Counted from the first letter of the stretch, positions 20,420-60,392 are shown. The stretch is DNA of 64,000 nt from Candidatus Oxydemutatoraceae bacterium (GCA_965226235.1 OZ245335.1:1137660-1201659), one strand, 5' to 3'. Numbers and translations: made by a program. The notes: generated from the sequence alone by a model not told the origin.

Positions 20420-22510
20420 TCAAAGGACGCCATCGTCAACGAAGTCGCTCTCGCGACCCTCTTCCGAACAATGGCCGCTCACGTCGACGAATACCTTGCT
20501 GTCCACTCGCGTCACGCAAAAACACCCCTCATAATGCTGACAAAGCCGCGCGCGTGGATTGTCTCGTCGAGGATCCCGTCGGGGGGCTCCAGGATCCCCT
20601 CGGGCTCGATGCGCACCATCAACTGCGCCGCTTCCGCCCGCGCCCTGCTGAACATCCAGCGGCTGCGGCCGGAACACGATCACCGCACGACGCTCCGCCC
20701 GGATGCCCAGCCCGTCTCCTTCCAGCAACTCACCCAGGTTGACCGGTGCGCCCGCAAGGTCTACCCTCATCCGCAACTCAAGCGGCGCCGTCGCACAGAA
20801 GGTAACCGCCGCGGTCGATGCTGCTGCGGTAAAGACCACCGTGCTCGAACCCACGACGGACGGCGTGCTCGACGAGTTGTCCGGGTACCCCTTGCAAAAT
20901 GCCGGGTTGTTCATCTGGTCCGAGTCCGAGCCGACACTCACCCGCAACGAATCCGGGTCGACCGCAACCCGAGCTGCGTCGTCCGGCGTGTAGACCAGCC
21001 GCAACCCGACTTCGCTGTCTCCCGACAGGCCTTCCATGCGCAGACCCACCACGTGCGGAACCCCCACGGCGATCACCAGATTGCCATCTTTGATCGGCGA
21101 CGCGTCCGTGACCAGACGAAACTGCGCCGTATCGAACCGCAGGGCACCATTGTCCTGCACCGCGTCCGCTACGCTGATCGTCGGTTTCATCGTCGGCACC
21201 GCGGCAGTCACAGTGGACGCGATTACCCGCGCTTCAAGATAAAACACCTGGCGTGGCGAAGCGTCGAAATCTTCCGCCAACTCGACCGGTATCTCTATCA
21301 TCCGCCCGCCCAGCGGATCCGCCGCGTCGGTGTCGACAGACTCGATCTGCGGAAGCACGCCGCCGCCTGCAAAGGTAACCACGAAGTTGGTGCTCGCAAC
21401 CGGGGCCTTGCCCCCGATGAAGAGTTCCGTCGTGTAACGCAACTCAACCACCAGCCGCTCGGTGCTCGCCAGGCTACCGCCCTCAAGTGCCAGGTCGACC
21501 CGCACAACATCGTCTTCGCCAGACAGCGCTAGCCGCGGCGGCGTGAACACCAACTTGAACGAACGGAACACATTGATCGCAAGAGGCGCCGGTTCCACGA
21601 GGATGCTCACGCGGTTGCCGCTCAACGTGAAATCGACAAGCGTCGGAACTGCCTCCACGCCCGCGGAAAACGTGATCATGGTCTGGTCTTCGTCGCCGCT
21701 CAACCGCACCAATGCAGGAAACTCGATCTCGCTGTCCCTCCGCAGGCTCAGCAGCACGTTGACCCCCTGGTCGGCAAACAGGCGCGGGAAAGTCGTTATG
21801 CGCAAATTGGAGCTCCCGCCTGCGACCATGTCGATCACCTCCGGCGCGTACAGCAACCTGACAGTGCTCGCCTCCAGCACCCTCATGTCGAATGACGCGA
21901 CCGTCACCCCGCCATCTGTCGCCAACGGCACGCCCGCGCTATCCGTCAGCGTCGCCAACGGCCGGCCAGCCGCGTCGATCACCTCGACCAAAGTGCTACT
22001 GGCGACCACGCGCAGGGATGCCACTTCACCCGGCTCGATGCCCAGGATCGGAATCACCGTCTCGCTGGACATCCCGTCCAGCACGACACGGATCACCGTC
22101 GAAGCCGCCAGCGGCTCTTCTGCCAGAAACGCCGCCTTCACCGCCGCGTTGCCTGCTTGGTAACTTCCCGGAAATACTGCCGAACCTTCGATCCGCACTT
22201 CGATTTCGATCTCTTCGTTTTCGCGCAACATGGCACCGACCCGAAGATCCCGGGACTCCCCGGCGACCACGGTCGAAGGCGAGAGAATCTCGCCGGTCAC
22301 ATCTTTGCCCAACATGGCACCGGCTCGAAGATCCCGGGACCCCCCGGCGACCACGGTCGAAGGCGAGAGAATCTCGCCGGTCACATCGACATCGCCGAAC
22401 TCGACCTCCACCATCAGACCCCGTTTGACCAGCACCTCCAGCGTCGCACCTTCACAGTAATCGCGATCGACTTCATCGGACGGATCATTGAACGCGAAGC
22501 ACTCCCTCAC
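20420..22510 (-). CDS. Repetitive beta-sandwich surface protein segment (696 aa); part of the giant tract
   Basis: Track ORF. It starts at a GTG two codons after an in-frame TAA, inside sequence that continues the sense of ORF 22485..23309 in another phase. It contains a 28-aa exact-type tandem duplication (DVTGEILSPSTVVAG.SRDLR.GAML). The C-terminal ~80 aa look like post-frameshift junk. Confidence 0.65.
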   Translation of the reverse strand: MRECFAFNDPSDEVDRDYCEGATLEVLVKRGLMVEVEFGDVDVTGEILSPSTVVAGGSRDLRAGAMLGKDVTGEILSPSTVVAGESRDLRVGAMLRENEEIEIEVRIEGSAVFPGSYQAGNAAVKAAFLAEEPLAASTVIRVVLDGMSSETVIPILGIEPGEVASLRVVASSTLVEVIDAAGRPLATLTDSAGVPLATDGGVTVASFDMRVLEASTVRLLYAPEVIDMVAGGSSNLRITTFPRLFADQGVNVLLSLRRDSEIEFPALVRLSGDEDQTMITFSAGVEAVPTLVDFTLSGNRVSILVEPAPLAINVFRSFKLVFTPPRLALSGEDDVVRVDLALEGGSLASTERLVVELRYTTELFIGGKAPVASTNFVVTFAGGGVLPQIESVDTDAADPLGGRMIEIPVELAEDFDASPRQVFYLEARVIASTVTAAVPTMKPTISVADAVQDNGALRFDTAQFRLVTDASPIKDGNLVIAVGVPHVVGLRMEGLSGDSEVGLRLVYTPDDAARVAVDPDSLRVSVGSDSDQMNNPAFCKGYPDNSSSTPSVVGSSTVVFTAAASTAAVTFCATAPLELRMRVDLAGAPVNLGELLEGDGLGIRAERRAVIVFRPQPLDVQQGAGGSGAVDGAHRARGDPGAPRRDPRRDNPRARLCQHYEGCFCVTRVDSKVFVDVSGHCSEEGRESDFVDDGVL
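22227..22394 (-). repeat. 84-bp (28-aa) in-frame tandem duplication
   Basis: aacatggcacc...gagagaatctcgccggtcacatc occurs at 22227 and 22311. In the protein this is DVTGEILSPSTVVAGGSRDLRAGAMLGK / DVTGEILSPSTVVAGESRDLRVGAMLRE. Confidence 0.9.
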
Positions 22511-23914
22511 TACTTATCCCCGTATCACCCCGCGTAAGCACCTGGAAGCGGCCATAATCGAAATCGGTCGCCTCGGCATCTACCAAAACGCTCACGTCAA
22601 TGTGCCTTGCGTCAACGTCTATATCAGGCGCCGGGAACGGCGGGGCTTCCTCCGTCTCCAGCATCGCCATCACCGCATCAACAAGATTTCCCTTATCGTC
22701 CAGACTGCTCAGACGACCGCTCCCATCCGAACTAAAGATGATGTCCAGGCTCACATCTGCCAGCAGCCTCGCGATCAGGCTCACGTCGGCCATGCTGCTC
22801 CGGCTATCTTCGGCGATCTCATTGCCCGGCAGCAGAACCACCTGTTGCGGAGAAAACGCCAGCATCGGCCGGTAGGGTTCGACGATCACCAGCAACGATG
22901 TGGTCGGCTTCAGCACCGGTTCGCCACCGGTGCTTGTATCCATCACCGTGCTCCTTACAACCTCGATGGTGGCGTCGCCGGCACGCAGACCGAAGGTCCC
23001 GAGTAACGTTGTGGCCATGTCCGTCAGCTCCACCCGCGTCGAGATCAGGTCCAGGATCTTCACCGGAAGCAGAGGCGACACCTCCACCATCAGTTCCACC
23101 TCTGCCGTTATGCCGCTCAAAGACCCCCCTGCCAAGGGCAGCAGAACCAGTGCCGCCAGTTCCTCCGGATCGCACGAGACCTTGCACACCTCGGCAACGA
23201 CCCGGCTCGGCATGAACACCAACTGGAACATCCGCGGCGCAACCTCCACCTGCAGACTGAAGGGAGAAACAACTTCGGCGCCATCCCGGCACCTCCACTG
23301 CTTCCACACGCAGACGGCTGCTGGCCAGATCCGCTCCCGCGATCAGCGTAAGGCCAACTTCGGTACTACCCGCGCTAAACACCACCTGTTGCGTGGACAA
23401 CGCCAGGCCGGCCCCGTCGTAATCCAGCGTCGCCACCAGCGACTCGCCTGGCAACAACCGCGACGTTCCAAACGAGGTATCCACCCCCAGCAACAGCAAC
23501 GACAGCGACGTCGAACTGAGTGCAGACATCGGAATCGACCCAAGCTCGGACCCCGCCTGGCTGACCACTGCAAAACGGAACTGACGCCTTTCCACTTCGA
23601 CCGCCACCGACACCGGCAGAACCTCGGCGTTGATCACGGCGGCGGGATCGACCACCGCCGTCAGCACGCCATCCTCTGCAGCGGCCACCGCCGACAAGGT
23701 CACGGAAACCTCGGTGCTCTCCGCGTCGAATGTCCCCGGCGTCACGGACAACGCAACGCCGGTGCCGTCGTTATACGCCAGCGTCACCGCCAGCGTCTGT
23801 CCGCGCCCAGGGACGGAATCCCCAGCGAAGAGGCCATCCCCGCCAGTTGCACCCGCAACGAGGTCGAGCCCCCCGCCAGCAGGCTCACCACCGGAGCCGG
23901 GGCACCCGCCTCGC
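22511..23914 (-). pseudogene. Frameshifted junction zone between the Calx-beta ORF and the 696-aa ORF
   Basis: Sense sequence hops between track ORFs 23784..23975 (VSTTLSVEIALRRFRLVVLSEAGAP..), 22819..23991 (middle part GQTLAVTLAYNDGTGVALSVTPGTFDAESTEVSVTL..) and 22485..23309 (SLQVEVAPRMFQLVFMPSRVV..). At least 4 phase changes occur in 1.5 kb. Confidence 0.6.
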
Positions 23915-26900
23915 TCAGAACCACCAAGCGGAAGCGTCGCAGCGCGATCTCCACCGACAAAGTGGTCGAAACCACCCCGCGTGTACGCCAACCCGGTCTT
24001 CGCCAGACAGTACCTCGCCCGAGGCGACCACCATCCCCAGCGGCGGTACTGCGTCGTGGCGCGCTTCGATGGTGAAGGTCGCCTGCAGCATAGTCGACGT
24101 CAGCGTCAGTTCAAGCGGAATGACTGTCACCGTCGTCGGCTGCAACGAAACCAGCAACTGCTCGCCCTCCATCAGCACATCCGGGTTCTCCAGTACCACC
24201 ACCACCTCGGTCGTGCCGCCCGCCAGCACCCGCGCCGTGGTCGCAGGGACGAACGCCAGCGAAAACTGCCGCACCGCACTGACCAGAACCGATGCCGGCG
24301 TCAGCGAAGCGTTATAGTATTCATCATCCCCCGGCGACACTAAACTATCCGGCGGTAATGGTAATACCACCGCCGTCACCGTCGCGTTCGACTCCACTAT
24401 CGCGTCACCAACCGTCCGCACCGTCAGTCGCGTCATTGACTCATCCGCCAGAAACACCACTTCCTTCTCAAACGGCGCGGTGTCCTCAAGTACGCGATTG
24501 CGATCTTGCGGTTCGTCAATCTGCACCGTCACCGTCAGCTCTGAAGCCGTGTCGCCCGGCCGCGTCAACTCAAAGACAATCTCCTCGCCTTCGGCCACTC
24601 CCAGATTATCGGGATGCTCATCAGGATCGAGAGCGATCGTCACGAAGTCGTTGTCCACGATGGTGATAATCGCCTCGGGGAACCTCCCCACACCATCAAC
24701 ATCAGGCCTGCCCGGCAGGCTATTAATAATCGTAATTCGAGAGTCATTGCCTTGCTCCAAATCGAACAACAGAGTCTCGTCTCCTTCCATTTGCTCGTCC
24801 TCCTCGGCTTTGAGCACCCCCGAGAGGATAAGAAAACTCTGCCGCCAACGCCCCGCCACCTGCTTAAAGTCCGATCCCGAAATATCATCTCTAAAGCTCG
24901 TCTTAAGGCCGACATGAATTGGCACATCATTAAGCTCGACTGAGACGTCGTCTGCAGATACGGCGGATACAGATGCCTTCTCCAAGCTGTAGCCAGCAAT
25001 AAAAAGCTCAACATTGACAAAAGCGTCATGGGGACGCTCGTCGGCTTCAAGAATGACCTCCCAAGCACCCTGCGGGGGGCCGCCTTCACTGATGTGCACC
25101 TGCGTGGTCGCAACATAAGCCTGCATTGGGGGAATGTCGTCATCCAGCACCAGAACCGACGCCGACCCCGGCGACCTCACCACATAATATTCGGCCCCCC
25201 CCACCGCTACCGCCGCCGCTGCTACCGTCGCCGTCACCGTCGTGTGCTCCTCGAACTCAAGGTCTGAAAACGTCGTCACCGACAGTTGCGTCGTTGGCAT
25301 GTCCGGCAGAAACATCACAGCCTCGGTCGACCGGACGCTATCAGAAAGTATGTCGCCGCCGGCTTCGTCAATCCCCACCACCACCGTCAGCAGTGAAGCC
25401 AGGTCGCCCGTGCGCGTCAACTCAAAGACAATCTCATCGCCTTCGTCCACTTCCACCAGCCCGGAATCGCCGACAGCGCCCACTGCGGTGATCGTCACCA
25501 ACGCCGTGTCGAGGACCACAACCGACGCCGGCCTCGACGAAGCGTTATAGTATTCGTCATCCCCCGGCGACGCTGAATAATCCGGCGAAAATACCACCAC
25601 CGCCGTCACCGTCGTGTTCGACCCCACTATCGCGTCATCAACCGTCGGCACCGTCAGTTGCGCCGTTGACGCGCCCGCCAGAAACACCACAGTCTTCTCA
25701 AACGGCGCGGTCTCCTCAAGTACGAGATTGGCATCTTGCGGTTCGTCAATCGCCACCGTCACCGTCAGCTCTGAAGTCGTGTCGCCCGGGCGCGTCAACT
25801 CAAAGACAATCTCCTCGCCTTCGTCGACTTCCGGATTATTGGCAGCGATCGTCACGAAGTCGTTGTCCACGATGGTGATAATCGTGTCGGGGAACACCTC
25901 ATCACCATCAACATCAAGCCTGCCCGGTAAGCTATTAATAAGACTAATTCGAGGGTCACTATCGTTGTCTTGATAAAAATCAACCAACAGGGTCTCGTCT
26001 CCTTCCATTTGATCGTCATCCTTGACTATGAACTCATGACCCCCCTCGATCTCAACACTACGCCACTGCAAACCCCCATCCACCATCACCTGACTAAAGA
26101 ACTCTCCGTGAATATCCCTAAAGTCCCGCTCAGGAACGGAGGCAGGAATTTCATCATCATCACTACCACCAGGAATCAGGAATGAGACGTCGTCTGCGGA
26201 TGCGGCGGATACGGATTTCTTCTCCAAGAGATAGTTAGCTACAAAAAGCCGAATAGCAAGAATCCTGTTATGGGGACGCTCGTCGGCGTCAAGAATGGCA
26301 CGCCACTCATACTTCCCTCCATTTTCATTGATACGCACCTGCGTGGTCTCAGCATAAGCGCGCATTTCCGGAATGTCGTCATCCAGCACCAGAACCGACA
26401 TCGACCCCGGCGACCCCGCCGCATAATATCCAGACTCCCCCTCCGCTACCGCCGCCGGTAGTACCGTCGCCGTCACCCTGGTGTGCGGCTCGAACTCAAG
26501 GTCTGAAAACGTCGGCACCGTCAGCCGCGCCGTTGACATGTCCGGCAGAAACACCACAGCTTCGGTCGGCCGGACGCTATCAGAAAGTATGTCGCCGCCG
26601 GCTTCGTCAATCCCCACCGTCACCGTCAGCTCTGAAGTCGGGTCGCCCGTGTGCGTCAACTCAAAGACAATCTCATCGCCTTCGCCCACTTCCACCAGCC
26701 CGGAATCGCCGATAGTGCCCACTGCGGTGATGGTCACCAGCGCCGTGTCGTCGTCGAGGACCAGAAGCGATGCCGGCGTCAGCGAAGCGTTATAGTATTC
26801 GCCATCCCCCGGCAACACCAAACTATCCGGCGGTAATGGTAATACCACCGCTGTCACCGTCGCGTTCGACTCCGCTATCGCGTCACCAACCGTCGGCACC

Positions 26901-29900
26901 GTCAGTCGCGTCATTGACTCATCCGCCGGAAACACCACTTCCTTCGTAAACGGCGCGGTGTCTTCAAGTACGCGATTGGCATCTTGCGGTTCGTCAATCG
27001 CCACCGTCACCGTCAGCTCTGAAGTCAGGTCGCCCGGACGCGTCAACGCAAAGACAATCTCCTCGCCTTCGTCCACTTCCGGATTATCGGAAGCGATCGT
27101 CACGAAGTCGTTGTCCACGATGGTGATAATCGCCTCGGGGAACACCTTCCTACCGCTAATACTATCAATCTCGACTTCCGGTAAGCTATTAATAAGACTA
27201 ATTCGAGGGTCAATGCCGCTTTGCCTAAAATCGAGCAACAGAGTCTCGTCTCCTTCCATTTGATCGTCATCCTCGGCTATGAGCAAAAACCCGGAATCGG
27301 AGAAGCCGAGAGCCAAACGCCACTGCAAACGACCACCTACCGGCTTAAAGTCCGATCCCGAAATCCCCTCTTTAAAGATAGTCGTAGTGAAGGGCACCAA
27401 CGACTCCCCCCCCCTCTTGAGTGAGACGTCGTCTCCGGATGCGGCGGATACGGATTCCTTCTCCAATAAGATTTCATATATAAGCAATACAAATTGCTTA
27501 TCCACCAAATCGTTATGAGGACGCTCGTCGGCTTCAAAAATGACACTAAAACCCCTCTGCCCGGGGCCGCCTTCACTGATGCGCACCTGCGTGGTCACAA
27601 CATAAACCTGCATTTCCGGAATGTCGTCATCCCGTACCAGAACTGATGTCGACCCCGGCGACCTCACCACATAATGTCCGGGCTCCCCCAACACCGTATC
27701 CGGCGGTACTACCACCGCCGTCACCGCCGTGTGCGGCTCGAAATCCTCGTCATTAACCGTCGGCACCGCCAGTTGCGTCGTTGGCATGTCCGGCAGAAAC
27801 ATCACAGCCTCGGTCGACCGGACGCTATCAGAAAGTATGTCGCCGGCTTCGTCAATCCCCACCACCACCGTCAGCAGTGAAGACAGGTTGCCGCCCGTGC
27901 GCGTCAACTCAAAGACAAGCTCCCTACCTTCTATCACTTCCACCAGCCCGGAAGGGCCGACAGCGCCCACTGCGGTGATGCTCACCAACGCCGTGTCGTC
28001 GTCGAGGACCAGAAGCGACGCCGGCGTCGACGCAGCGTTATAGTATTCGCCACTCTCCAAACCCGTCGGTGGCGCTATCGACGGATCCGGCGGTAAGACC
28101 ACCGCCGTCACCGTCGTGTCCGGCTCCACTGTCGCGTCATTAGCCGTCCGCACCGTCAGTTGCGTCATTGAATCGCCCGCCAGGAATACCGCTTCCTGCG
28201 TAAACGGCGCGGTGTCCTCAAGTACGCGATTGGCATCTTGCGGTTCGCCAATCTGCACCGTCACCGTCAGTTGCGCCGTTGACTCGACCGCCGGGCGCGT
28301 CAGCACAAAGACAATCTCATTGCCTTCGGCCACTTCCGGATTATCGGGAGCGATCGTCACGAAGTCGTTGTCCACGATGGTGATAACCTCATGAACAGAC
28401 TTCATAGTAAAACCGAAACCTTCGTTTCCTGGATCATCGATGACATATTCCGGGCGGAGACCTCCGGCCCTTTCGATCACAAGCCCAAACGTCTCGTCTC
28501 CTTCCATTAGATCGTCATCGTTGATGGTGACCGGTATATACACGACCTTCCGGTAAACCCCGTCTTCGAGCAACTTAAATCCTGAATGGCCGGGAGTAAA
28601 CATATTACTGAACACTGGATAGTCTCCCGGGAAGTTTGCACTGTTGTTTTTGCTCGAAAATGAAATGAAAAAACCCTCAGGAGGCGGTGCCTCGGCATCC
28701 ATCACGATCCCGGCTTGATACACACCGTGTCCTTCACTGAGGCGCGTCTGCGTACTGGCAGTATAAATGCGCATTGCGGGGAAACCGTCATCCAGCACCC
28801 GAACCGATGCAGACCCCGGCGACCCCACCTCATAATACCCAGGCTCCCCCAACACCGTATCCGGCGGTGATACCACCGCCGTCACCATGGTGGGCTGTTC
28901 GTACGCATCGTCATCAACCGTCGGCACCGTCAGTTGCCTCGTTGACTCGCCCACCGGAAACACCACAGTCTTTATAGACGACGCGGTGTCCTCAAGTACG
29001 CGATTGGCATCTAGCGGTTCTTCAATCTCCACACCCACCGTCAGCGATGAAGCCAGGTTGCCCGCGCGCGTCAACTCAAAGACAATCTCATCGCCTTCGT
29101 CCACTTCCACCAGCCCGGAAGGGCCGACAGCGCCCACTGCGGTGATGGTCACTATCGTCGTGTCGTCGTCGAAGACCAGAAGCGACGCCGGCGTCGACGT
29201 AGCGTTATAGTATTCGCCACTCTCCAAACCCGTCGGTGGCGCTATCGACGGATCCGGCGGTAAGACCACCGCCGTCACCGTCGTGTCCGGCTCCACTGTC
29301 GCGTCATTAGCTGTCCGCACCGTCAGTTGCGTCATTGAATCGCCCGCCTGAAACACCGCTTCCTGCGTAAACGGCGCGGTGTCCTCAAGTACGCGATTGG
29401 CATCTTGCGGTTCGCCAATCGCCACCGTCACCGTCAGTTGCGCCGTTGACTCGACCGCCGGGCGCGTCAGCACAAAGATAATCTCCTCGCCTTCGGCCAC
29501 TTCCGGATTATCGGGGGCGATCGTCACGAAGTCGTTGTCCACGATGGTGATAACCTCATGAGCACCCTTCCCACTAAAATCGAAACGTCTGTGTCCTGGA
29601 TCATCAATGACAATTTCCGGGCGGAGACCCGGGGCTCTTTCGATCAGAAGCCCAAACGTCTCGTCTCCTTCCATTAGATCGTCATCGTTGATGGTGACCG
29701 GTGTATACACGACCTTCCGGTAAACCCCGTCGACCAACTCAAATCCTGAAGGGCCGGGATTAACCTGATTAGAGAGCGATGAATAGTCTTTCGGGTCTTC
29801 TGCCCCTTTTCTTCGGGACGAAAATGCAATGAAAAAACCCTCAGGAGGCGGCGCCTCGGCATCCATCACGATCCCGGCTTGATACACACCGTGTCCTTCA

Positions 29901-32900
29901 TTGAGGCGCGTCTGCGTACTGGCAGTATAAATGCGTATTTGGGGAAAACCGTCATCCAGCACCCGAACCGACGCAGACCCCGGCGACCTCACATAATAAT
30001 GTCCGGGCTCCCCCAACACCGTATCCGGCAGTGATACCCCCGCCGTCACCGCCGTGGGCTGCTCGTACGCATCGTCATTCATCGTCTGCACCGTCAGTTG
30101 CCTCGTTGACTCGCCCACCGGAAACACCACAGGCAGGGTAGACGGCGTAAGCGGCACGGTGTCCTCAAGTACGCGATTGGCATCTTGCGGTTCGTCAATC
30201 TCCACACCCACCGTCAGCGATGAAGCCAGGTTGCCCGTGCGCGTCAACTCAAAGACAATCTCATCGCCTTCGGTCACTTCCACCAGCAAAGAATCGCCGA
30301 CACCTGCGGTGATGGTCACCAGCGCCGTGTCGTCATCGAGGACCAGAACCGACGCCGGCGTCGACGCAGCGTTGTAATATTTGCCACTACTCGTTCTCTC
30401 CGGTGGTGTTTCCGGCGGATCCGGCGGTATTACCAGCGCCGTCACCGTCGACATTCCCTCGTCATTAGCCGTCGGCACCGTCAGTAACGCCGTTGCCATG
30501 CCCTCCGGAAACACCACAGTCTGCGTAAACGTAGACGGCGCGGTGCCGCCGACTTCGGTTTCGGTAATCACCGTCACCGGCAGTTCCGGAGCCAGGTCGC
30601 CCGCCGGGCGCGTCAACACAAAGTTGATGGGCGTGCCTTTTGCCACCACCCCCAGCGTCTCGGAACCGGTAGCGATCCTGATGTCGGGACCGGGAGCGAT
30701 CGTTACGAAGTCGTTGTCCTCGATGGTGAGCGTCACCCTGTCCCCAGGGCTAAGAATTCTGATTTGAGGGTGAAGATTGGCACTTCTCTCCAACCTCAAC
30801 AGTAGCGACTCCTCTCCTTCCATCAGGTCGATATCCTCATTCTCCTTCCTATCGATAGTGACGAGCGTCGAAGGTTCAACGACCTGCCGGTAAAAGAAGG
30901 TCACACCTTCGTCGCCGATCCTGCTAACCCGCTGAAATTCTGAATAGAATATCTCGACCACCTCATTTACCGGCTCAAAGTCTTCCAGGAACTGTGCGCT
31001 CCTCGACTCGCTGAAATATGCAAGACCAAAAGATAATAGCCTGCCATCCCTGTCATCGAAACTACGGGGACGCTCGTCGGATAGCGTCTCCGCAATGACC
31101 CGAAGCCTAAAACCGCTTCCTTCGCTGACGCTCACCTGGGTGCTGGCAGCATAAACGTTTATTCCGGGAACGTCGTTATCCCGCACCAGAACCGATGTCG
31201 ACCCCGGCGACCTCACCACATAATGTCCGGGCTCCCCCAACACCGTGCCCGGCGGTACTACCACCGCCGTCACCGTCGTGTGCGGCTCGAAATCCTCGTC
31301 ATTAACCGTCGGCACCGCCAGTTGCGCCGTTGGCATGTCCGGCAGAAACATCACCGCCTCGGTCGACCGGACGCTATCAGCAAGTATGTCGCCGCCGGCT
31401 TCGTCAATCCCCACCACCGCCGTTAGCGGTGAAGACAGGTTGCCCTCCGTGCGCGTCAACTCAAAGACAAGCTCCCTACCTTCTATCACTTCCACCAGCC
31501 CGGAAGGGCCGACAGCGCCCACTGCGGTGATGGTCACCAACGCCGTGTCGTCGTCGAGGACCACAACCGACGCCGGCGTCGACGCAGCGTTATAGTATTC
31601 GCCACTCTCCAAACCCGTCGGTGGCGCTATCGACGAATCCGGCGGTAAGACCACCGCCGTCACCGTCGTGTCCGGCTCCGCTATCGCGTCATTAGCCGTC
31701 GGCACCGTCAGTAGCGCCGTTGACGCGCCCGCCAGGAATACCGCTTCCTTCTCAAACGGCGCGGCCTCCTCAAGTACGCGATTGGCATCTTGCGGTTCGC
31801 CAATCTGTACCGTCACCGTCAGCGATGAAGCCAGGTCGCCCCCCGGGCGCGTCAGCACAAAGTTAATGGTCGTGCCTTCGGCCACCCCCAGCTTATCGGG
31901 AGCGATCGTCACGAAGTCGTTGTCCACGATGGTGATAACCTCATGAACAGACCCCATACTAAAATCGAAACCTTCGTTTCCTGGAGTATCGATGACAATT
32001 TCTGAGGGGAAAACCAAGCCCATTTCGATCAGAAGCCCAAGCCTCTCGTCTCCTTCCATTAGATCGTCATCGTTGATGGTGACCGGTATATACACGACCT
32101 TCCGGTAAAAGAAGGTCACACCTCCGTCGACGCTAACCCGCTGAAATCCTGAATGGCCGGGATTAAACGAAATAGTGAGCCTTGGAGAGTCTTCCGGGAT
32201 GCCTGCACCCCCGCTTCTGGTCGAAAATGAAATGAAAAAACCACGATCACTAGGCGGCGGTGCCTCGGCATCCATCACGATCCCAGCTTGATACACACCG
32301 TGTCCTTCATCAAGGCGCGTCTGCGTACTGGCAGTATAAATGCGCATTGCGGGAAAACCGTCATCCAGCACCCGAACCGACGCCGACCCCGGCGACCCCA
32401 CCTCATAATACCCAGGCTCCCCCAACACCGTATCCGGCGGTGATACCACCGCCGTCACCGTGGTGGGCTGCTGGTACGCATCGTCATTAACCGTCGGCAC
32501 CGTCAGTTGCCTCGTTGACTCGCCCACCGGAAACACCACAGTCTTTATAGACGACGCGGTGTCCTCAAGTACGCGATTGGCATCTTGCGGTTCGTCAATC
32601 TCCACACCCACCGTCAGCGATGAAGCCAGGTTGCCCGCGCGCGTCAACTCAAAGACAATCTCCTCGCCTTCGACCACTTCCACCAGCCTGGAATCGCCGA
32701 CAGCGCCCACTGCGATGATGGTCACTATCGTCGTGTCGTCGTCGAAGACCAGAAGCGACGCCGGCGTCGACGCAGCGTTATAGTATTCGCCACTCTCCAA
32801 ACCCGTCGGTGGCGCTATCGACGGATCCGGCGGTAAGACCACCGCCGTCACCGTCGTGTCCGGCTCCACTGTCGCGTCATTAGCCGTCCGCACCGTCAGT

Positions 32901-35900
32901 TGCGTCATTGAATCGCCCGCCAGGAATACCGCTTCCTGCGTAAACGGCGCGGTGTCCTCAAGTACGCGATTGGCATCTTGCGGTTCGCCAATCGCCACCG
33001 TCACCGTCAGTTGCGCCGTTGACTCGACCGCCGGGCGCGTCAGCACAAAGACAATCTCATTGCCTTCGGCCACCCCCAGCTTATCGGGAGCGAGATCGGG
33101 AGCGATCGTCACGAAGTCGTTGTCCACGATGGTGATAGCCTCATGAGCAGGGGAAGGGGAACCTTTGAAATTTCCTGGAGGATCAATGACATATTCCGGG
33201 CGGAGACCTCCGGCCCTTTCGATCACAAGCCCAAACGTCTCGTCTCCTTCCATTAGATCGTCATCGTCGATGGTGACCGGTATATACACGACCTTCCGGT
33301 AAACCCCGTCTTCGAGCAACTCAAATCCTGAAAGGCCGGGACTAAACATATTACTGATCGCTGGATAGTCTTCCGGGGAGTCTGCACTGTTGCCTTTGGT
33401 CGAAAATGAAATGGAAAACCCACGATCACTAGGAGGCGGTGCCTCGGCATCTATAACGATCCCGGCTTGATACACACCGTGTCCTTCATTGATGCTCGTC
33501 CGCGTACTGGCAGTATAAATGCGTATTGCGGGAAAACCGTCATCCAGCACCCGAACCGACGCAGACCCCGGCGACCTCACATAATAATGTCCAGGCTCCC
33601 CCAACACCGTATCCGGCGGTGATACCACCGCCGTCACCGCCGTGGGCTGCTCGTACGGATTGTCATTCACCGTCGGCACCGTCAGTTGCACCGCTGACTC
33701 GCCCGCCGGAAACACCACAGTCTTCTCAAACGGCGCGGTCTCCTCAAGTACGCGATTGGCATCTTGTGGTTCTTCAACCACCACCTTCACCGCCAGCTCT
33801 ACATCCGGGTCGCCCGTGCGCGTCAACTCAAAGACCATCTCATCGCCTTCGGTCACTTCCACCAGCAAAGAATCGCCGACACCTGCGGTGATGGTCACCA
33901 GCGCCGTGTCGTCATCGAGGACCAGAACCGACGCCGGCGTCGACGCAGCGTTGTAATATTTGCCACTACTCGTTCTCTCCGGTGGTGTTTCCGGCGGATC
34001 CGGCGGTATTACCAGCGCCGTCACCGTCAACATTCCCTCGTCATTAGCCGTCGGCACCGTCAGTTGCGCCGTTGCCATGCCCTCCGGAAACACCACAGTC
34101 TGCGTAAACGTAGACGGCGCGGTGCCGCCGACTTCGGTTTCGGTAATCACCGTCACCGGCAGTTCCGGAGCCAGGTCGCCCGCCGGGCGCGTCAACACAA
34201 AGTTGATGGGCGTGCCTTTTGCCACCACCCCCAGCGTCTCGGAACCGGTAGCGATCCTGATGCCGGGATCGGGAGCGATCGTCACGAAGTCGTTGTCCTC
34301 GATGGTGAGCGTCACCCTGTTCCCAGGGCTAAGAATTCTGATTTGAGGGTGAAGATTGGCACTTCTCTCCAACTTCAACAGTAGCGACTCCTCTCCTTCC
34401 ATTAGGTCGTCATCGATAGTGACGAGCGCCGGAAATTCAACGACCTGCCGGTAAAAGAAGGTCACACCTCCGTCGACGCTAACCCGCTGAAATTCTGAGA
34501 AGAATATATCGACCAGCTCATTTAGCGGCTCAAAGTCTTCCCGGAACCGTGCGCTCCCCGACTCGCTTGTATATGCAAGAGGAAAAGATAATAGCCTGCC
34601 ATCCCTGTCATCGAAACTACGGGGACGCTCGTCGTATCGCGTCTCCGCAATGACCCGAAGCCTAAAACCGCTTCCTTCGCTGACGCTCGCCTGCGTGCTG
34701 GCAGCATAAATGTCTATTCTGGGAACGTCATTATCCCGCACCAGAACCGATGTCGACCCCGGCGACCTCACCACATAATGTCCGGGCTCCCCCAACACCG
34801 TGCCCGGCGGTACTACCACCGCCGTCACCGTCGTGTGCGGCTCGAACTCATCGTCATTAACCGTCGGCACCGCCAGTTGCGTCGTTGGCATGCCCGGCAG
34901 AAACATCACCGCCTCGGTCGACCGGACGCTATCAGCAAGTATGTCGCCGCCGGCTTCGTCAATCCCCACCACCACCGTCAGCGGTGAAGACAGGTTGCCC
35001 TCCGTGCGCATCAACTCAAAGACAAGCTCCCCACCTTCTATCACTTCCACCAGCCCGGAAGGGCCGACAGCGCCCACTGCGGTGATGGTCACCAGCGCCG
35101 TGTCGTTGTCGCGGACCAGAACCGACGCCGGCGTCGACGCAGCGTTATAGTATTCGCCACTCTCCAAACCCGTCGGTGGCGCTATCGACGGATCCGGCGG
35201 TAATACCACCGCCGTCACCGTCGTGTCCGACTCCGCTATCGCGTCATTAGCCGTCGGCACCGTCAGTAGCGCCGTTGACGCGCCCGCCGGGAATACCGCT
35301 TCCTGCGTAAACGGCGCGGTGTCCTCAAGTACGCGATTGGTATCTTGCGGTTCGCCAATCTGCACCGTCACCGTCAGTTGCGCCGTTGACTCGACCGCCG
35401 GGCGCGTCAGCACAAAGACAATCTCCTCGCCTTCGGCCACTTCCGGCTTACCGGGAGCGATCGTCACGAAGTCGTTGTCCACGATGGTGATAACCTCATG
35501 AACAGACTTCATACTCGGACCGAAACCTCCGTTTCCTGGAGGATCAATGACATATTCCGGGCGGAGACCCGGGCCCCTTTCGATCAGAAGCCCAAACGTC
35601 TCGTCTCCTTCCATTAGATCGTCATCGTTGATGGTGACCGCTCTATACACGACCTTCCGGTAAACCCCGTCTTCGAGCAACTGAAATCCTGAATGGCCGG
35701 GATTAAACGTATTAAAGAACACTGGATAGTCTTCCGGGAATCCTGCCTCTTTTCTTCTGTCCGAAAATGCAATGTTAATACCACTAGCACTAGGCGGCGG
35801 TGCCTCGGCATCCATCACGATCCCGGCTTGATACACACCGTGTCCTTCATTGAGGCGCGTCTGCGTACTGGCAGTATAAATGCGCATTGCGGGAAAACCG

Positions 35901-38900
35901 TCATCCAGCACCCGAACCGATGCAGACCCCAGCAACCTCGCATAATAATGTCCGGGCTCCCCCAACACCGTATCCGGAGGTGATACCACCGCCGTCACCG
36001 TCGTGGGCTGCTCGTACGCTTCGTCATTCACCGTCGGCACCGTCAGTTGCCTCGTTGACTCGCCCGCCAGAAACACCACAGTCTTCTCAAACGGCGCGGT
36101 CTCCTCAAGTACGCGATTGTCATCTTGCGGTTCTTCAATCTCCACACCCACCGTCAGCGATGAAGCCGAGTCGCCCGTGCGCGTCAACTCAAAGACAATC
36201 TCATCGCCTTCGGTCACTTCCACCGGCAAAGAATCGCCGACACCTGCGGTGATGGTCACCAGCGCCGTGTCGTCATCAAGGACCAGAACCGACGCCGGCG
36301 TCGACGCAGCGTTGTAATATTTGCCACTACTCGTTCTCGTCGGTGGTGTTTCCGGCGGATCCGGCGGTATTACCACCGCCGTCACCGTCGACATTCCCTC
36401 GTCATTAATCGGTGGCACCGTCAGTTGCGCCATTGCCTCGCCCGCCGGAAACACCACCACATGCGTAAACGTAGACGACGGCGCGATGCCGTCGACTTCG
36501 GTAATCACCGTCACCGGCAGTTCCGGAGCCAGGTCGCCCGCCGGGCGCGTCAACACAAAGTTGATGGATGTGCCTTTTGCCACCACCCCCAGCGTCGTAT
36601 CGGGATCGGTAGCGACCCTCATGTCGGGACCGGTAGCGACCCTCATGCCGAGACCGGTAGCGATCGTTACGAAGTCGTTGTCCTCGATGGTGAGCGTCAC
36701 CCTGCGCCCAGGGCTAAGTCTTCTGATTTGAGGGTGAAGATTAGCACTTCTCTCCAACTTCAACAGTAGCGACTCCTCTCCTTCCATCAGGTCGATATCG
36801 ATACCCGCATCCCTATCGATAGTGACGAGCGCCGGAAATTCAACGACCTGCCGGTAAAAGAAGGTCACACCTCCGTCGACGATCTTGCTAACCCGCTGAA
36901 ATTCTGAAAAGAATATATCGACCACCTCATTTACCGGCTCAAAGTCTTCCCGGAACCGTGCGCTCCTCGACTCGCTTGAATATGCAAGACCAAAAGATAA
37001 TAGCCTGCCATCCCTGTCATCGAAACTACGGGGACGCTCGTCGGATAGCGTCTCCGCAATGACCCGAAGCCTAAAACTGCTTCCTTCGCTGACGCTCGCC
37101 TGCGTGCTGGCAGCATAAATGTCTATTCTGGGAACGTCGTTATCCCGCACCAGAACCGACACCGACCCCGGCGACCTCACCACATAATATCCGGGATCCT
37201 CCTTCGCCACCGCCGTCGCTACTACCACCGCCGTCACCGTCGTGTGCGGCTCGAAATCCTCGTCATTAACCGTCCGCACCGCCAGCTGCGCCGTTGGCAT
37301 GTCCGGCAGAAACACCACAGCTTCGGTCGACCGGACGCCAGCAGCAAGTATGTCGCCGCCGGCTTCGTCAATCCCCACCACCGCCGTCAGCGGTGAAGAC
37401 AGGTCGCCCGTGCGCGTCAACTCAAAGACAAGCTCCCTACCTTCTATCACTTCCACCAGCCCGGAAGGGCCGACAGCGCCCACTGCGGTGATGGTCACCA
37501 GTGCCGTGTCGTCGGCGAGGACCAGAAGCGACGCCGGCGTCGGCGCAGCGTTGTAATATTCGCTATCCCCCGGCGACACTGAACTATCCGGCGGTAATGG
37601 TAATACCACCGCCGTCACCGTCTTGTCCGATTCCACTATCGCGTCATCAACCGGCGGCACCGTCAGTTGCGCCATTGACGCGCCCGCCGGAAACACCACA
37701 GTCTCCATAGACGGCGCGGTGCCGCTGACTTCGGTAATTACCCTCACCGGTAGTTCTGAAGCCAGGTCGCCCGCCGGGCGCGTCAACACAAAGTTGATGG
37801 GCGTGCCTTTTGCCACCACCCCCAGCGTCGTATCGGGATCGATGGCGATCGTCATGTCGGGAGCGGGAGCGATCGTCACGAAGTCGTTATCCTCGATGGT
37901 GAGCTCCACCTCGGGGCTAAGAATCATGATTTGATCGGGAAGATTAAGAGTTTTCTCCAACTTCAACAGTAGCGACTCGTCTCCTTCCATCAAATCGTCA
38001 TCGATAGTGACGAGCGCCGTAGATTCAACGACCTGCCTGTAAAAGAAGGCCACACCTTCGTCGACGAGCTTGCTAACCCGCTGAAATTCTGAATAGAATA
38101 TCTCGACCACCTCATTTACCGGCTCAAAGTCTTGCTGGGACAGTGCGCTCCGCGACGTGCTTGAAAATGCAAGAGAAAAAGCACTGTCACTATCGAGATA
38201 ACGGGGACGCTCGTCGTATAGCGTCTCCGCAATGACCCGAAGCCTAAAACTGCTTCCTTCGCTGACGCTCGCCTGCATGCTGGCAACATAAACGTTTATT
38301 CCGGGAACGTCGTCATCCCGCACCAGAATTGACGCCGACCCCGGCGACCTCACCACATAATATCCGGGCTCCTCCGCCGCCACCGCCGCCGGTCGTACCA
38401 CCGCCGTCACCGTCGTGTACTCCTCGAACTCAAGGTCTGAAAACGTCGTCACCGCCAGTTGCACCGTTGACTGGCCCGCCGGAAACACCACCGTCTTCGT
38501 AAACGGCGCGTCCTCAAGTACGCGATTGGCATCTGGCGGTTCGGCAATCGCCACTGTCACCGTCAGCTCTATAGCCGGGTCGCCCGAGTGCGTCAACTCA
38601 AAGACAATCTCATCGCCTTCGTCCACTTCCACCAGCCCGGAATCGCCGACATCGCCCACTGCGGTGATGCTCACCAGCGTCGCTTCGTCGGCGAGGACCA
38701 GAACCGATGCCGGCGTCGAAGAAGCGTTATAATATTCGTCATCCCCCGGCAACGCTGAATAATCCGGCGAAAATACCACCATCGCCGTCACCATCGCGTT
38801 CGACTCCACTGTCTCGTCATCAACCGTCGGCACCGTCAGTCGCGCCATTGGCTCGCCCGCCAGAAACATCACAGTCTTCTCAAACGGCGCGGTCTCCTCA

Positions 38901-41900
38901 AGTACGAGATCGGCATCTTGCGGTTCGTCAATCTGCACCGTCACCGTCAGTTGCGCCGTTGACGTGCCCGCCGGGCGCGTCAACTCAAAGACAATCTCCT
39001 CGCCTTCGGCCACTTCCGGATTATCGGGATGCTCATCAGGATCGGGAGCGATCGTCACGAAGTCGTTGTCCACGATGGTGATAATCGCCTCGGGGAACAC
39101 CTCCTCATCATTAACATCACGTCTGGCCGGTAGGCTACTAAGCGTAATTCGAGAGTCCTCGTTTTGCTCCAAATCGAGCAACAGAGTCTCGTCTCCTTCC
39201 ATTTGCTCGTCCTCCTCGGCTTTGAGCCTCTGCCCCGAGAGGATAAAAAAACTATGCCGCCAACGCCCTGCCACCTGCTCAAAGTCCGATCCCGAAATAT
39301 TCCTCTGAAGGCTCGATTGAGTGAAGAACCGGAATGACGCATTACCAGACTCGAGTGAGACATCGTCTGCGGATGCGGCGGATACGGATGCGTTCTCCAA
39401 GCGGTAGCCAAATACAAACCTAAAAATACTAGCAAGAGCTTCATGGGGACGCTCGTCGGCTTCAAGAATGAGCTCCCAAGCACCCTGCGGGGGGCCGCCT
39501 TCACTGATGCGCACCTGCGTGGTCGCAACATAAGCTTGCATTTCCGGAATGTCGTCATCCAGCACCAGAACTGATGCCGACCTCGGCGAACTCGGCACAT
39601 AATATCCGGGCTCCCCCTCCGCCACCGCCGCCGGTGGTACCGTCGCCGTCACCGTCGTGTGCGGCTCGAACTCAAGGTCTGAAATCGTCCTCACCGCCAG
39701 TTGCGTCGTTGACACGCCCGCCGGAAACACTACAAACCTGCCACTAATAATAACCACGTCGCCGCCTAATTCGTCAATCTCCACGAACACCCCACTCAGC
39801 GATGAAGCCAGATCGCCCGTGCGCGTCAATTCAAAGACAATCTCATCGCCTTCGTCCACTTCCACCAGCGAAGAATCGCCGACAGTACCCACTGCGGTGA
39901 TCGTCACCCGCATCGTTTCGTCGTCGAAGACCATAACCGCCGCCGGCGTCGAAGCAGCGTTATAGTATTCGTCATCCCCCGGCGACACTGAACTATCCGG
40001 CGGTAATGGTAATACCACCGCCGTCACCGTCGTGTCCGACTTCGTTATCGCGTCATCAGCCGTCCGCACCGTCAGTTGCGCCGTTGACTTGCCGGTCGGA
40101 AACACCACAGTCTTCTCAAACGGCACGGTGTCATCAAGTACGCGATTGGCATCTGGCCGTTCGTCAATCGCCACCGTCACCGTCAGCTCTGAAGCCGTGT
40201 CGCCCGGACGCGTCAACTCAAAGACAATCTCCTCGCCTTCGTCCACTTCCGGATTATTGGAAGCGATCGTCACGAAGTCGTTGTCCACGATGGTGATAAT
40301 CGCGATGGGGAACACCTGCTGACCATTAACATTAGGCCTGGACGGCACGCTACGAATGATTTCAATTCGACGATCAAGGTTGCTGCCTGGAGCCAACTCT
40401 GCCAACAGAGTCTCGTCTCCTTCCATTTCCGTGTCATCCCTGACTTCGAGCCGATAGAAATCGGCAAAAGCACTATGCCGCCAATGCCCCTCCACCTGCT
40501 TAAAGTCCAATCCCGAAGCATTAACTCGAAAGCTACTTTTAGAGGGGAACGCAATTGACTGGCTACCTCCAGCCTTGAGTAAGACATCACCGCCTTGGGA
40601 TGCGGCGGATACCGATGCCCTATCCAAGCGGTAGCCATAGCTAAAAAGAGCACTAATATTAACGTCAGCGGTATGGGGACGCTCGTCGGTTTCAAGAATA
40701 ATCTCAACACGCCTATACGGGGGGTCGCCTTCACTGATACGCACCTGTGTGGTCGCAGGATAAACGCGTGTTTCCGGAATGTCGTTATCCCGCACCAGAA
40801 TTGACGCCGTGCTCGGTGACCCCGCCACATACTCCACCCCCTGTAATACCGTCGCCGTCACCATCGTGTGCGGCTCGAACCCCCTGTCGGCAACCGTGTC
40901 CACCCTCAGTTGCGTCGTTGACTCGTCCGCCAGAAATATCACAGTCTTCGTAGACGGCGCGGTGTCATCAAGTACGCGATTGGCATCTGGCGGTTCTTCA
41001 ACCGCCACACCCACAGTCAGCGATGAAGCCAGGTCGCCCATGCGCATCAACTCAAAGACAATCTGACGGCCTTCGTCCACAGCGGACACTGCGGGGGTGA
41101 TGGTCACCAGCGCCGCCTCGTCGTCGCGGACCAGAACCGACGCCGGCGTCGGCGAAGCGTTATAGTATTCGTCATCCCCCGGCAACACTGAACTATCCGG
41201 CGGTAGTGGTAATACCACCGCCGTCACCATCGCGTTCGACTCCGCTATCGCGTCATCAGCCGTCGGCACCCTCAGTTGCGTCGTTGGCTCGCCCGCCAGA
41301 AACATCACGGTCTTCGTAAACGGCGCGGTGTCCTCAAGTACGCGATTGGCACCTTGCGGTTCGTCAATCTGCACCGTCACCGTCAGCTCTGAAGTCGTGT
41401 CGCCCGGGCGCGTCAACTCAAAGACAATCTCCTCGCCTTCGTCCACTTCCGGATTATTGGAAGCGATCGTCACGAAGTCGTTGTCCACGATGGTGATAAT
41501 CACATCGGGGGACACCTCATCACCAAAAACATCAAGCCTGGCCGGTAATAAGCTATTAATAATACTAATTCGAGAGTCAACGCCTGCTGGCTCCAAATCT
41601 AAAAACAGAATCTCGTCTCCTTCCATTTGCTCGTCCTCCCCGGCTGTGAAATCCACCACCGAGAGATGCCACTGCCAAACCCCCTCCACCTGCTTAAAGT
41701 TCGATCCCTCAATAGGTTGACGATACTCCCGAGGCGCATCCGTATCAACACTCCTAAGAAGAACACCAAGAAGATTGACTCTGATGTCGCCTCCAGATGC
41801 GTTCTCATCGTGGCGGGCTAGGATAAAAATCCTAGCGGAAATCGCCCGGAGATGGGGACGCTCGTCGGCTTCAAGAATGATCGGCCAAGCCCCGGCCTCT

Positions 41901-43306: not shown

Positions 43307-44870
43307 CCGCCGGTAGTACCGTCGCCGTCACCGTGGTGTGCTCCTCGAACTCATTGTCGGCAATCGTGGACACCCTTAGTTGCTGCCTTAAGTCGCCCGC
43401 CGGAAACAACGATGTCATTTCTGTCTGATTGCCATCTCCCGCTTCTTCAACCAACACCGTCACCGGCAGTTCTGAAGTCGGGTCGCCCGTGCGCGTCAAC
43501 TCAAAGACAATCTCCCCGCCTTCGCTCACTTCCACCAGCCCGGAATCGCCGACAGCACCCACTGCGGTGATCGTCACCAGCGTCACCAGCGGCGTGTCGT
43601 CGTCATTGAGGACCACAACCGATGCCGGCCTCGACGAAGCGTTATAGTATTCCTCATCCCCCGGCGACGCTGAATAATCCGGCGAAAATACCACCATCGC
43701 CGTCACCGTCGTGTTCGACCCCACTATCGCGTCATCAACCGTCGGCACCCTCAGTTGCGTCGTTGACTCATCCGCCGGGAACATCACAGTCTTCTCAAAC
43801 GGCGCGGTGATCCCAAATACGCTATTGGCATCTTGCGGTTCTTCAATCTGCACCGTCACCGTCAGCGATGAAGCCGTGTCGCCCGGGCGCGTCAACTCAA
43901 AGACAATCTCCTCGCCTTCGTCGACTTCCGGATTATTGGCAGCGATCTTCACGAAGTCGTTGTCCACGATGGTGATAATCGTGTCGGGGAACACCTCATC
44001 ACCATCAACATCAAGCCTGCCCGGTAAGCTATTAATAAGACTAACTCGAGGGTCACTACTGTTGTCTTGATGAAAATCAACCAACAGGGTCTCGTCTCCT
44101 TCCATTTGATCGTCATCCTCGGCCCTGAGCGCAGCAAACGAGTTGATAGGATCACGCCACTGCCCACTCCCCATCACCTGACTAAATTCCAATCCATGAA
44201 TATCCCTTCGAACGCCCGCAGGACCGGAGATAGAAGCTCCAAAATCACCACCAGGAAACTGGCGTGAGACGTCGTCTGCGGATGCGGCGGATACGGATTC
44301 CTTCTCCAAGAGATAGCGAATGCTAAAAATATCAATAGCAATCTGCTGCCTGTGAGCAAACGGCCTGTTATGGGGACGCTCGTCGGCTTCAAGAATGGCA
44401 CGCCACAGATACAGCTCTCCACCTTCACGGATACGCACCTGCGTGGTCGCAGCATAAACGCGCATTTCCGGAATATCGTCATCCAGCACCAGAACCGACG
44501 CCAACCCCGGCGACCCCGCCGCATAATACCCAGACTCCCCCTCCGCTACCTCCGCCGGTGCTAGCAACGCCGTCACCACCGTGTCCTCCTCGAACTCAAG
44601 GTCTGAAAACGTCAGCACCGCCAGTTGTGTCATTGACACGCCCGCCGGAAACACCACAGTCTTCTCAAACGGCGCGGTGTCATCAAGTACGCGATCGGCA
44701 TCTCGCGGTTCGTCAATCTCCACCGTCACCGTCAGCGGTGAAGTCAGATCGCCCGTGCGCGTCAACTCAAAGACAATCTCATCGTCTTCGTCCACTTCCA
44801 CCAGCGAAGAATCGCCGACAGCGCCCACTGCGGTGATCGTCACCAGCGTCGTGTCACCGCCGCCGCCGCC
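24290..44870 (-). repeat. Coding tandem array of about 17 Calx-beta-like triads (unit ~1.16-1.22 kb)
   Basis: First-domain starts fall at about 25110, 26350, 27610, 28770, 29930, 31150, 32340, 33520, 34700, 35880, 37100, 38300, 39540, 40760, 41940, 43210 and 44470. There are three first-domain types: c (..TTQVRI.EGG......ILEADERPH..), a (IYTASTQTRL.EGHGVYQAGIVMDAEAPPP) and b (I.(I/V)YAASTQ.SVSEGS.FRLRVIAET..DERPR). The N-to-C order is c5-(a/b)9-c3. The motif gtcacgaagtcgttgtccacgatggtgat (ITIVDNDFVT) recurs once per triad. Confidence 0.85.
27600..38330 (-). repeat. a/b-type triad block containing a ~3.55-kb super-repeat (a-a-b read left to right on the plus strand; b-a-a in protein N-to-C order) in two full, highly similar copies
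   Basis: Antisense marker ORFs recur at 27674 / 31223 / 34778 (offsets 3549 and 3555) and at 30381 / 33960 (offset 3579). The latter pair share about 95% of 128 translated residues. Confidence 0.8.
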
Positions 44871-54396: not shown

Positions 54397-54404
54397 CTCC
54401 TCCG

Positions 54405-56678: not shown

Positions 56679-57003
56679 ATGACGCGGCGCCCGTGAGTTG
56701 AACCCGATGCCCCATGCATCCAGCCTGCCTGGACCGGCAGATGAACCAGAGTTATTAATTATCAGTGTCCAGGTGCCCCGTGTGCTTCTCCCAATCGCAC
56801 CACCCAGACCCGCATTAGTCTCCTCTGCGCCGCGCTGTAAACCTTCCGTATATCACTGCTGGATCCGCCGCTCGAATCAATAAACCTATTATTCCCGCCC
56901 CCCTCCAGCGTAACACTTACCCCCCCCGGGGTTAGGGTTCCGACCGATACCATCAGCCATACCGAATCGATCCGGATGTCCCTCTCCACATTGATCGAGC
57001 TCA
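56679..57003 (-). pseudogene. Divergent, frameshifted P-domain copy between the 686-aa and 757-aa ORFs
   Basis: Track ORF 56762..57007 carries the P-domain core in a third phase (SSINVERDIRIDSVWLMVSVG..). Downstream sense (..GRLDAWGIGFNSRAPRHVRVLADAS) is in the phase of ORF 54405..56678. The zone contains a C8G4 homopolymer pair at 56920-56931. Confidence 0.6.
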
Positions 57004-60370: not shown

Positions 60371-60392
60371 GGTCTCCCAGGCATGTGCACCC

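Follow-up and report, generated by a model that had tools for sequence, protein, structure and literature searches.

In segmental-conversion systems of antigenic variation, i.e., Neisseria pilE/pilS, Borrelia vlsE, Treponema tprK and Anaplasma msp2, silent donors are copied into one expression site at high frequency. Uncultured marine and symbiotic bacteria commonly encode giant repeat proteins stiffened by Ca2+, whose repeats are as a rule regarded as inert spacers. Theory for tandem arrays describes selection that maintains differences between copies against gene conversion (PMC9252282), and polymorphic Calx-beta arrays in sponge aggregation factors have been implicated in allorecognition (PMC5400394). 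Here we analyze a 64,000-nucleotide (nt) stretch of DNA from a Candidatus Oxydemutatoraceae bacterium (GCA_965226235.1 OZ245335.1:1137660-1201659; hereafter the window), which contains a giant gene built of Calx-beta-like repeats. In five paralogous domains of this gene, short hypervariable cassettes are embedded in near-identical frameworks. A preliminary description of the same DNA had drawn attention to these cassettes and proposed that they form an intragenic variation system. We argue instead that concerted evolution of the repeats is opposed by diversifying selection on one domain edge, a reading to which we assign a probability of roughly 0.65.

Results

The giant open reading frame (ORF) lies on the minus strand (23915..43306) and encodes 6463 amino acids in 16 super-repeats of ~400 residues, each of which closes with the invariant string (I/L)T I(V/E) DNDFVTIA. 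Every super-repeat possesses one "first" Calx-beta-like domain of type a, b or c, defined as the domain preceding the DNDFVTIA string, and then two more domains. From D1 to D16, the first domains are of types c, c, c, c, b, b, a, b, a, a, b, a, a, c, c and c. The five a-type domains, all on the minus strand, are D7 (35456..35896), D9 (33101..33535), D10 (31901..32356), D12 (29516..29947) and D13 (28349..28783). By codon alignment, the cassette cores were set to run from after APPP through SGF, over ~36 residues, which places them at 35684-35791 in D7 (SASGINIAFSDRRKEAGFPEDYPVFFNTFNPGHSGF), 33323-33430 in D9, 32144-32251 in D10, 29741-29842 in D12 and 28577-28678 in D13. The five stretches were thus found where they had previously been reported, and the codon-alignment coordinates agree. 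The boundary motif GACCTTCCGGTAAA occurs exactly five times in the window (28544, 29711, 32096, 33290 and 35651), as does GAAAATG[AC]AATG (28656, 29820, 32223, 33402 and 35763), with one occurrence of each per a-type domain. Three of the copies contain an exact match to a 43-nt framework string, and a fourth contains a near-exact one.

Sliding-window comparison of the five a-type units (30-nt windows) gave 93-99 % identity in both flanks and 51-76 % between them. Mean pairwise nucleotide identity among the five was 0.746 in the cassette, as compared with 0.939 over the 35 codons upstream and 0.965 over the 28 codons downstream, i.e., the middle frame. Only one variable stretch per domain had been described before; this did not hold, as a second one, ER(A/G)..LRPE..GN..F....(S/A)VHE, lies ~40 codons downstream of the cassette in the F-G connection (35495-35578 in D7, 33140-33217 in D9, 31940-32023 in D10, 29555-29638 in D12 and 28388-28471 in D13). 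It is as variable as the cassette, with a mean identity of 0.727, against 0.979 in the C-terminal frame. Variable amino-acid columns amounted to 24/39 in the cassette and 19/28 in the second stretch, as compared with 14/76 elsewhere in the domain (Fisher P = 6e-6 each). The cassettes are also AT-richer than the gene, as noted earlier, with G+C contents of 0.44-0.51 vs 0.574. Amino-acid composition as the sole cause of this richness was rejected, given that G+C at third codon positions (GC3) is low too: the ORF has 0.65, as against 0.39 for the cassettes and 0.42 for the second variable stretch. Low cassette GC3 could possibly reflect less GC-biased conversion, or AT-biased mutation in fast-evolving segments.

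To place the cassette within the domain, we built an AlphaFold2 model of D13 on an alignment of 15 first domains (predicted local distance difference test score (pLDDT) 80.9; predicted template modelling score (pTM) 0.76). All of the 32 best Foldseek matches to this model in the PDB were Calx-beta domains, led by the first calcium-binding domains (CBD1) of NCX1 (2DPK) and CALX, with TM-scores of 0.64-0.83, a probability of 1.00 and E-values down to 5e-8; like these, the D13 model is a seven-strand beta-sandwich. Pfam recognized Calx-beta (PF03160) in the second and third domains of the super-repeat (44.6 bits), whereas the a-type first domain alone scored below the gathering cut-off (20.8 vs 27 bits), in a match confined to residues 81-106, the E-F part. 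On the predicted strands, the cassette covers the B-C loop (APPP-EG), strand C (40-46), the C-D loop (47-58), strand D (59-62) and the D-E loop up to SGF. What had been taken for a single surface loop is therefore, in the AlphaFold mapping, a C-D hairpin, in which strands C and D and their three loops surround an invariant Asp. Model confidence is lowest in the C-D loop. Cassette positions I40, F42, A49, D54, S67 and F69 are invariant in nine distinct copies, and their neighbors take 3-7 states each. Such a pattern would arise if positions that face the core are conserved while those on the outside vary, and the variable residues probably do face outward.

Columns conserved without exception in all three domain types include E17, D54, E94, E97, D138 and D140, which we take to match the NCX1 CBD1 Ca2+ ligands E385, D421, E451, E454, D498 and D500, respectively. 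A profile alignment to NCX1 matched two of the motifs, namely DDD..E..E in the E-F loop and D-x-D at the C-terminus. Judged by sequence, the acidic Ca2+-ligand residues (the A-B loop Glu, the D of D-Y, DDD..E..E and D-x-D) are present, and the a-type domain presumably binds Ca2+. The equation of D54 with D421 of the CBD1 SDY motif is tentative, since it comes from a manual alignment and the hidden Markov model (HMM) alignment puts SDY opposite HSGF; we prefer PGDY as the counterpart of SDY, in view of the order of the predicted strands and the invariance of D54. Both the fold match and the invariant Asp agree with placement of the cassette at the D-Y region of Calx-beta, as first suggested from the sequence.

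Selection on the cassette was assessed by Nei-Gojobori counts over six close a-type copies, with a codon bootstrap of 2000 replicates. The proportion of nonsynonymous differences (pN) in the cassette was 0.264 and that of synonymous differences (pS) 0.080, a ratio of 3.3. The bootstrap 95 % interval of pN-pS was 0.11-0.25, and no replicate fell to zero or below (0/2000; P < 0.0005). In the adjoining N-terminal frame, pS was 0.092 and pN 0.045. Variable sites at first, second and third codon positions numbered 18, 18 and 7 of 36 in the cassette and 4, 3 and 8 of 35 in the frame, and 7/8 four-fold third positions in the cassette were invariant. As cassette pS is no higher than framework pS, the cassettes are not older, unhomogenized segments, and we rejected an origin by escape from homogenization. 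The diversifying selection proposed earlier is thereby supported, and the ratio of 3.3 exceeds what relaxed constraint can yield. The b-type domains exhibit a weaker form of the pattern at the same place (pN 0.17-0.19, pS 0.06-0.07), and the c-type domains are diverged throughout (pS and pN both ~0.3).

These counts bear on a neutral explanation, in which the hairpin and the F-G loop are unconstrained, and divergence lets them escape conversion and drift. Such relaxation would be compatible with the F-G stretch, whose pN/pS of 1.4 is not significantly above 1, and with the presence of lower-confidence loops (pLDDT 65-73) in the variable stretches; low cassette GC3 would likewise fit AT-biased mutation in a weakly constrained segment. 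Escape from conversion, however, should raise pS too, whereas the cassette value equals that of the framework, and a pN/pS of 3.3 lies above the neutral ceiling of 1. Moreover, buried-type positions within the cassette, namely I40, F42, A49, D54 and F69, are invariant. We therefore regard neutral relaxation as unlikely.

We searched for relatives of the array in public data. The a-type domain had no relative among GTDB representative genomes, exact DNA patterns gave no match in JGI metagenomes or representative genomes, and neither the protein P0007 nor the ferrochelatase of the window had an exact match. Relatives came from one ENA metagenome assembly only, the word-indexed protein search yielding just fragments from one such assembly. 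L001, an independent long-read contig of 97 kb, is collinear with window positions 38781..18311 and differs at ~0.5 % of sites within the Calx-beta array. Its cassettes stand in the same order; those of D12 and D13 are identical to the window's and those of D7 and D9 differ by 1 nt each. In addition, exact short-read unitigs for the D13, D12 and D10 cassettes were present in two public runs. A highly repetitive gene that carries frameshifts in the window might raise the suspicion that the cassettes are artefacts of collapsed or chimeric repeats in a long-read assembly. The unitigs and the matching order of cassettes in L001 refute this for D10, D12 and D13; for D7 and D9, the window and L001 are the sole sources. 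An assembly artefact is accordingly the explanation that we hold to be least credible of all.

A second contig, L003, is 95.3 % identical to window positions 41649..34093. At the D7 position, the flanks of the two are 97-100 % identical and the cassettes 57-87 %, and all ~16 differing cassette codons are nonsynonymous, which again argues against neutral relaxation. The L003 cassette is 86 % identical to that of window D10 and 74 % to that of window D7, whereas its framework is 98 % identical to D7; 13/16 of its variant codons recur in other copies at the homologous column. At the position orthologous to D7, L003 thus has a D10-like cassette within D7-like flanks, so that the history of the cassette is uncoupled from position and framework, in agreement with the cassette exchange suggested previously. 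A unitig variant of the D13 cassette in run X2 has nine listed nucleotide changes, all nonsynonymous, and the second variable stretch is also mosaic between strains. With further cassettes from L002, L004, the X2 unitig and P0007, a total of 12 distinct cassettes were found on one framework. Extra cassette variants are also present as unitigs in the same sample, and may represent strains, other gene copies or clonal variants. Polymorphism at the same positions across strains was seen both in the D7 cassette and in a block within D10.

This D10 block is a 45-nt tract of b-type sequence (..FQRVSVDGGVTFFYR..; 32102..32146, minus strand) that is identical to 34448..34492 (minus strand) in D8, the sole b-type copy with this variant, which lies 2.3 kb upstream of D10. 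D10 had already been described as an a/b chimera, and the b-type block indeed occurs only at 32109 (D10) and 34455 (D8). Where the window D10 reads QRVSVDGGVTFFY, L001 reads KLLEDGVY, and a unitig of run X2 continues like L001, i.e., without the b-type block. The tract is the product of a recent short-tract conversion in the window's lineage, with D8 as donor and D10 as recipient. More generally, the alleles of 137/170 single-nucleotide polymorphisms relative to L001, and of 227/274 relative to L003 (81-83 %), already occur at the homologous column of another repeat. The null expectation is 31 % for random positions and bases and 50-57 % for the same positions with random bases, and 0/500 replicates reached the observed values. 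A GENECONV-like runs test was significant in 6/10 a-type pairs (global P < 0.01), and the Hudson-Kaplan minimum number of recombination events (Rm) was 21 per 1.2-kb unit and 4 within the cassette. The gene conversion between repeats that had been postulated for this gene is therefore borne out by the D8-D10 block, by the paralogous alleles and by the runs test.

The flanks of the cassette contain no inverted repeats and no G-quadruplex (G4) motif. As a separate observation, an E. coli-type Chi octamer, GCTGGTGG on the coding strand and CCACCAGC on the plus strand, is present once per super-repeat (25453, 26692, 27940, 29107, 30280, 31492, 32680, 33859, 35047 and so on). It falls in conserved G-L-V-E codons, and its periodicity therefore follows from that of the repeat itself.

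Gene conversion between expressed repeats might also be programmed, with the repeats serving as a mutual donor library from which cassettes are shuffled at high frequency, so that variants would arise within a clonal population as in pilE/pilS, vlsE and tprK. The variable segments between conserved flanks, the short conversion tract caught between strains, the codon-scale mosaicism of the cassettes and the further variants found as unitigs in the same sample are all features that such shuffling would produce. Nevertheless, D12 and D13 are identical and D7 and D9 are 1 nt apart between the window and L001, every copy is in frame with no silent donor loci, neither a G4 motif nor an inverted repeat was found, and the unitig variants may stem from other strains or gene copies. 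Programmed shuffling is on this evidence quite unlikely. An intragenic variation system in the sense of a dedicated, high-frequency mechanism was thus not substantiated: 4/5 cassettes are unchanged or 1 nt apart between the window and L001, and we detected neither a template repeat nor a G4 motif, nor inverted repeats, nor, among the ORFs scanned, a reverse transcriptase.

The concentration of changes at first and second codon positions, the near absence of silent change and the sharp boundaries could alternatively result from targeted hypermutation by a diversity-generating retroelement (DGR) or similar mutator elsewhere in the genome. There is, however, no sixth, template-like copy, as blastn of a cassette with its flanks returned only the five in-gene copies, and L001-L004 likewise contain in-gene copies only. 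Among ~30 ORFs scanned with Pfam there was no reverse-transcriptase (RVT) match, in a scan that did not extend to every small ORF or to the rest of the genome. Adenines at three four-fold third positions (codons of the type GCA, CCA, TCA or GGA) are invariant, many variable sites have no adenine in any copy, and the cassettes are stable between the window and L001. With no template, no reverse transcriptase found and invariant silent-site adenines, DGR-type mutagenesis was rejected as largely refuted, and we consider it very improbable.

Upstream of the giant ORF, the same gene continues on the minus strand (43140..47378) with ~950 non-repeat residues and then repeats that include a 17th first domain. 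This domain and the 16 of the main ORF make up the 17 first domains of the preliminary description. A single extra base near 43157, i.e., a 1-nt frameshift as judged against L003 and the paralogous unit D15, splits the gene into 43140..47378 and 23915..43306, and is either an assembly error or a strain-specific frameshift. P0002, the corresponding protein of L003, possesses a Sec-type signal peptide immediately ahead of its repeats. In the window, the ~950 non-repeat residues precede the repeat homologous to that of P0002, where the P0002 signal peptide runs straight into the repeats. Two transposase genes (DDE_Tnp_1; rve/HTH) are located in L003 (6613-10900) directly upstream of the P0002 gene start with its Sec-like signal peptide. 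Among the b-type domains, D6 (36659-37135) and D11 (30695-31171) carry a 6-residue insertion within the Ca2+-loop motif (DRDAGIDIDLMEGEE and DRKENEDIDLMEGEE), whereas D5 and D8 read DDDLMEGEE there.

After the Calx-beta array, a chain of minus-strand ORFs at 12409-23991 exhibits a different repeat type (..PRQFRLAFVPATTARVLAGG..), and in a related contig one 9344-residue ORF is called over the matching part. Within 300 nt of this region, as many as 56 mismatches to L001 and 36 gap positions occur, in contrast to the ~0.5 % of the Calx-beta array. Three large ORFs upstream of the gene (47593-59064, minus strand; 2267, 757 and 686 residues) contain proprotein-convertase P-domains, four in the first and one in each of the others, with no other Pfam match. 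Between positions 1 and 12400, long ORFs are found on the plus strand only and have no Pfam or NCBIfam match; the GC skew there is as negative as in the minus-coded region, which makes the coding strand uncertain. Rfam gave no match in the window, and NCBIfam nothing further. The ferrochelatase encoded at 59363..60697 shares 61-70 % identity with those of metagenome-assembled genomes labeled Candidatus Oxydemutatoraceae (Gammaproteobacteria, Chromatiales) and 53 % with its counterpart in Ca. Porisulfidus, a name that appears in a sponge metagenome report (PMC12988363). These identities mark the source of the window as an uncultured gammaproteobacterium.

Discussion

The scaffolds of the a-type domains are homogenized by gene conversion, selection most probably maintains diversity along one edge, and cassettes are exchanged in whole or in part. 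This explanation builds on the localization of the variability, on the excess of amino-acid over silent change, on single conversion events and on the finding that one cassette has turned over between strains at an orthologous position. In five paralogous, divergent Calx-beta domains, the stretches would encode the region from the B-C loop to the D-E loop, including strands C and D and the C-D loop between them, and the hairpin would form one edge of the beta-sandwich, with one such domain per ~400-residue super-repeat. Short-tract, non-reciprocal recombination among the repeats would keep the frameworks 94-98 % identical, and the same recombination would erase synonymous differences within the hairpin. 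Differences at the amino-acid level would persist where selection favors copies that differ, i.e., in the hairpin and, with less clarity, in the F-G loop, and would be reshuffled among repeats and strains. Each a-type domain of the array would thereby display its own version of one patch, around an invariant Asp that may be the counterpart of the Ca2+ ligand in the D-Y motif. A dedicated mutator or recombinase would not be required. The selection itself may come from a ligand, from host recognition, or from a phage or predator.

Several points weigh against this explanation. Gene-wide pN/pS between the window and L001, L003 and L004 is 1.4-1.7 (1490-4940 codons); part of the signal is therefore a property of the gene, with the cassette as the extreme of a gene-wide trend. 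Differences between assemblies cluster in all domain types and not in the a-type cassettes alone. Selection alone does not account for the gap in GC3 between the cassette (0.39) and the gene (0.65). The paralogs are few and non-independent, Nei-Gojobori counts ignore codon bias and recombination, and the comparison contigs have 3-13x long-read coverage, with indel errors. Finally, the window copy of the gene carries frameshifts which, if real, would place selection on the protein in this strain in doubt.

Even so, a subset of the repeats in this giant protein carries a defined patch, delimited to a few codons, that differs among repeats and among strains and in which the signature of selection for diverse amino acids is strong. 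Such a patch points to where a giant repeat protein contacts something specific. It also offers a small, testable target, since a single scaffold is available with five to twelve natural versions of the 36-residue hairpin. In addition, the gene offers a clean natural example of gene conversion against diversifying selection inside a single ORF, including one tract with a precise donor and recipient. A sponge host is plausible in view of the relatives of this bacterium. A bolder and decidedly improbable idea is that the a-type array acts as a self-contained recognition "barcode", in which expressed repeats are donors for each other without silent cassettes, and strain-specific combinations of hairpins mediate specific recognition between bacterium and host. 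If the host is a sponge, the target of such a barcode could be the host's own polymorphic Calx-beta aggregation factors.

Among known systems, the a-type domain shares its beta-sandwich fold with Calx-beta (PF03160) and with CBD1 of NCX1 and CALX (PDB 2DPK, 3E9T and 3EAD). CBD1 presumably has its ligand D421 of the SDY motif where the a-type domain has the invariant C-D loop Asp (2DPK numbering). Relative to CBD1, the a-type domain is extended by ~9 residues after strand D and by a long insertion between strands F and G, and the exchanger domains, unlike the a-type array, are not tandem paralogs with a hypervariable hairpin. Two distant Calx-beta arrays, P0012 and P0013, have uniform repeats without a cassette.

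With the segmental-conversion systems of antigenic variation, the array shares short variable segments between conserved flanks and mosaics that arise by short, non-reciprocal transfers. It differs in that all copies are in frame in one ORF and the identified donor, D8, is itself an in-frame repeat, that no cis-acting initiator was found, and that the cassettes are largely stable between two assemblies. DGR targets likewise resemble the cassettes in their localized hypervariability, sharp boundaries and almost exclusively amino-acid-changing positions. In contrast to DGR targets, however, there is no template repeat, a reverse transcriptase was not found, the changes are not restricted to adenines, and the domain has neither of the target folds, C-type lectin or immunoglobulin (Ig). 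Sponge aggregation factors (PMC5400394) are, like the giant protein, large extracellular Calx-beta repeat proteins with local hotspots enriched in nonsynonymous variation. They are animal genes, though, with variation that is allelic and possibly involves RNA editing, and the likeness is one of domain fold; we treat this resemblance as a possible lead only.

The closest parallel is concerted evolution with divergence kept by selection. We met no described Calx-beta array in which conversion and selection are opposed in this way, the literature not having been searched for one. Features common to that process and to the present array are homogenized frameworks, mosaic tracts, a pS that is equal inside and outside the patch, and a pN that is high in the patch only. 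The theory concerns separate genes, whereas the units described here are domains of one polypeptide.

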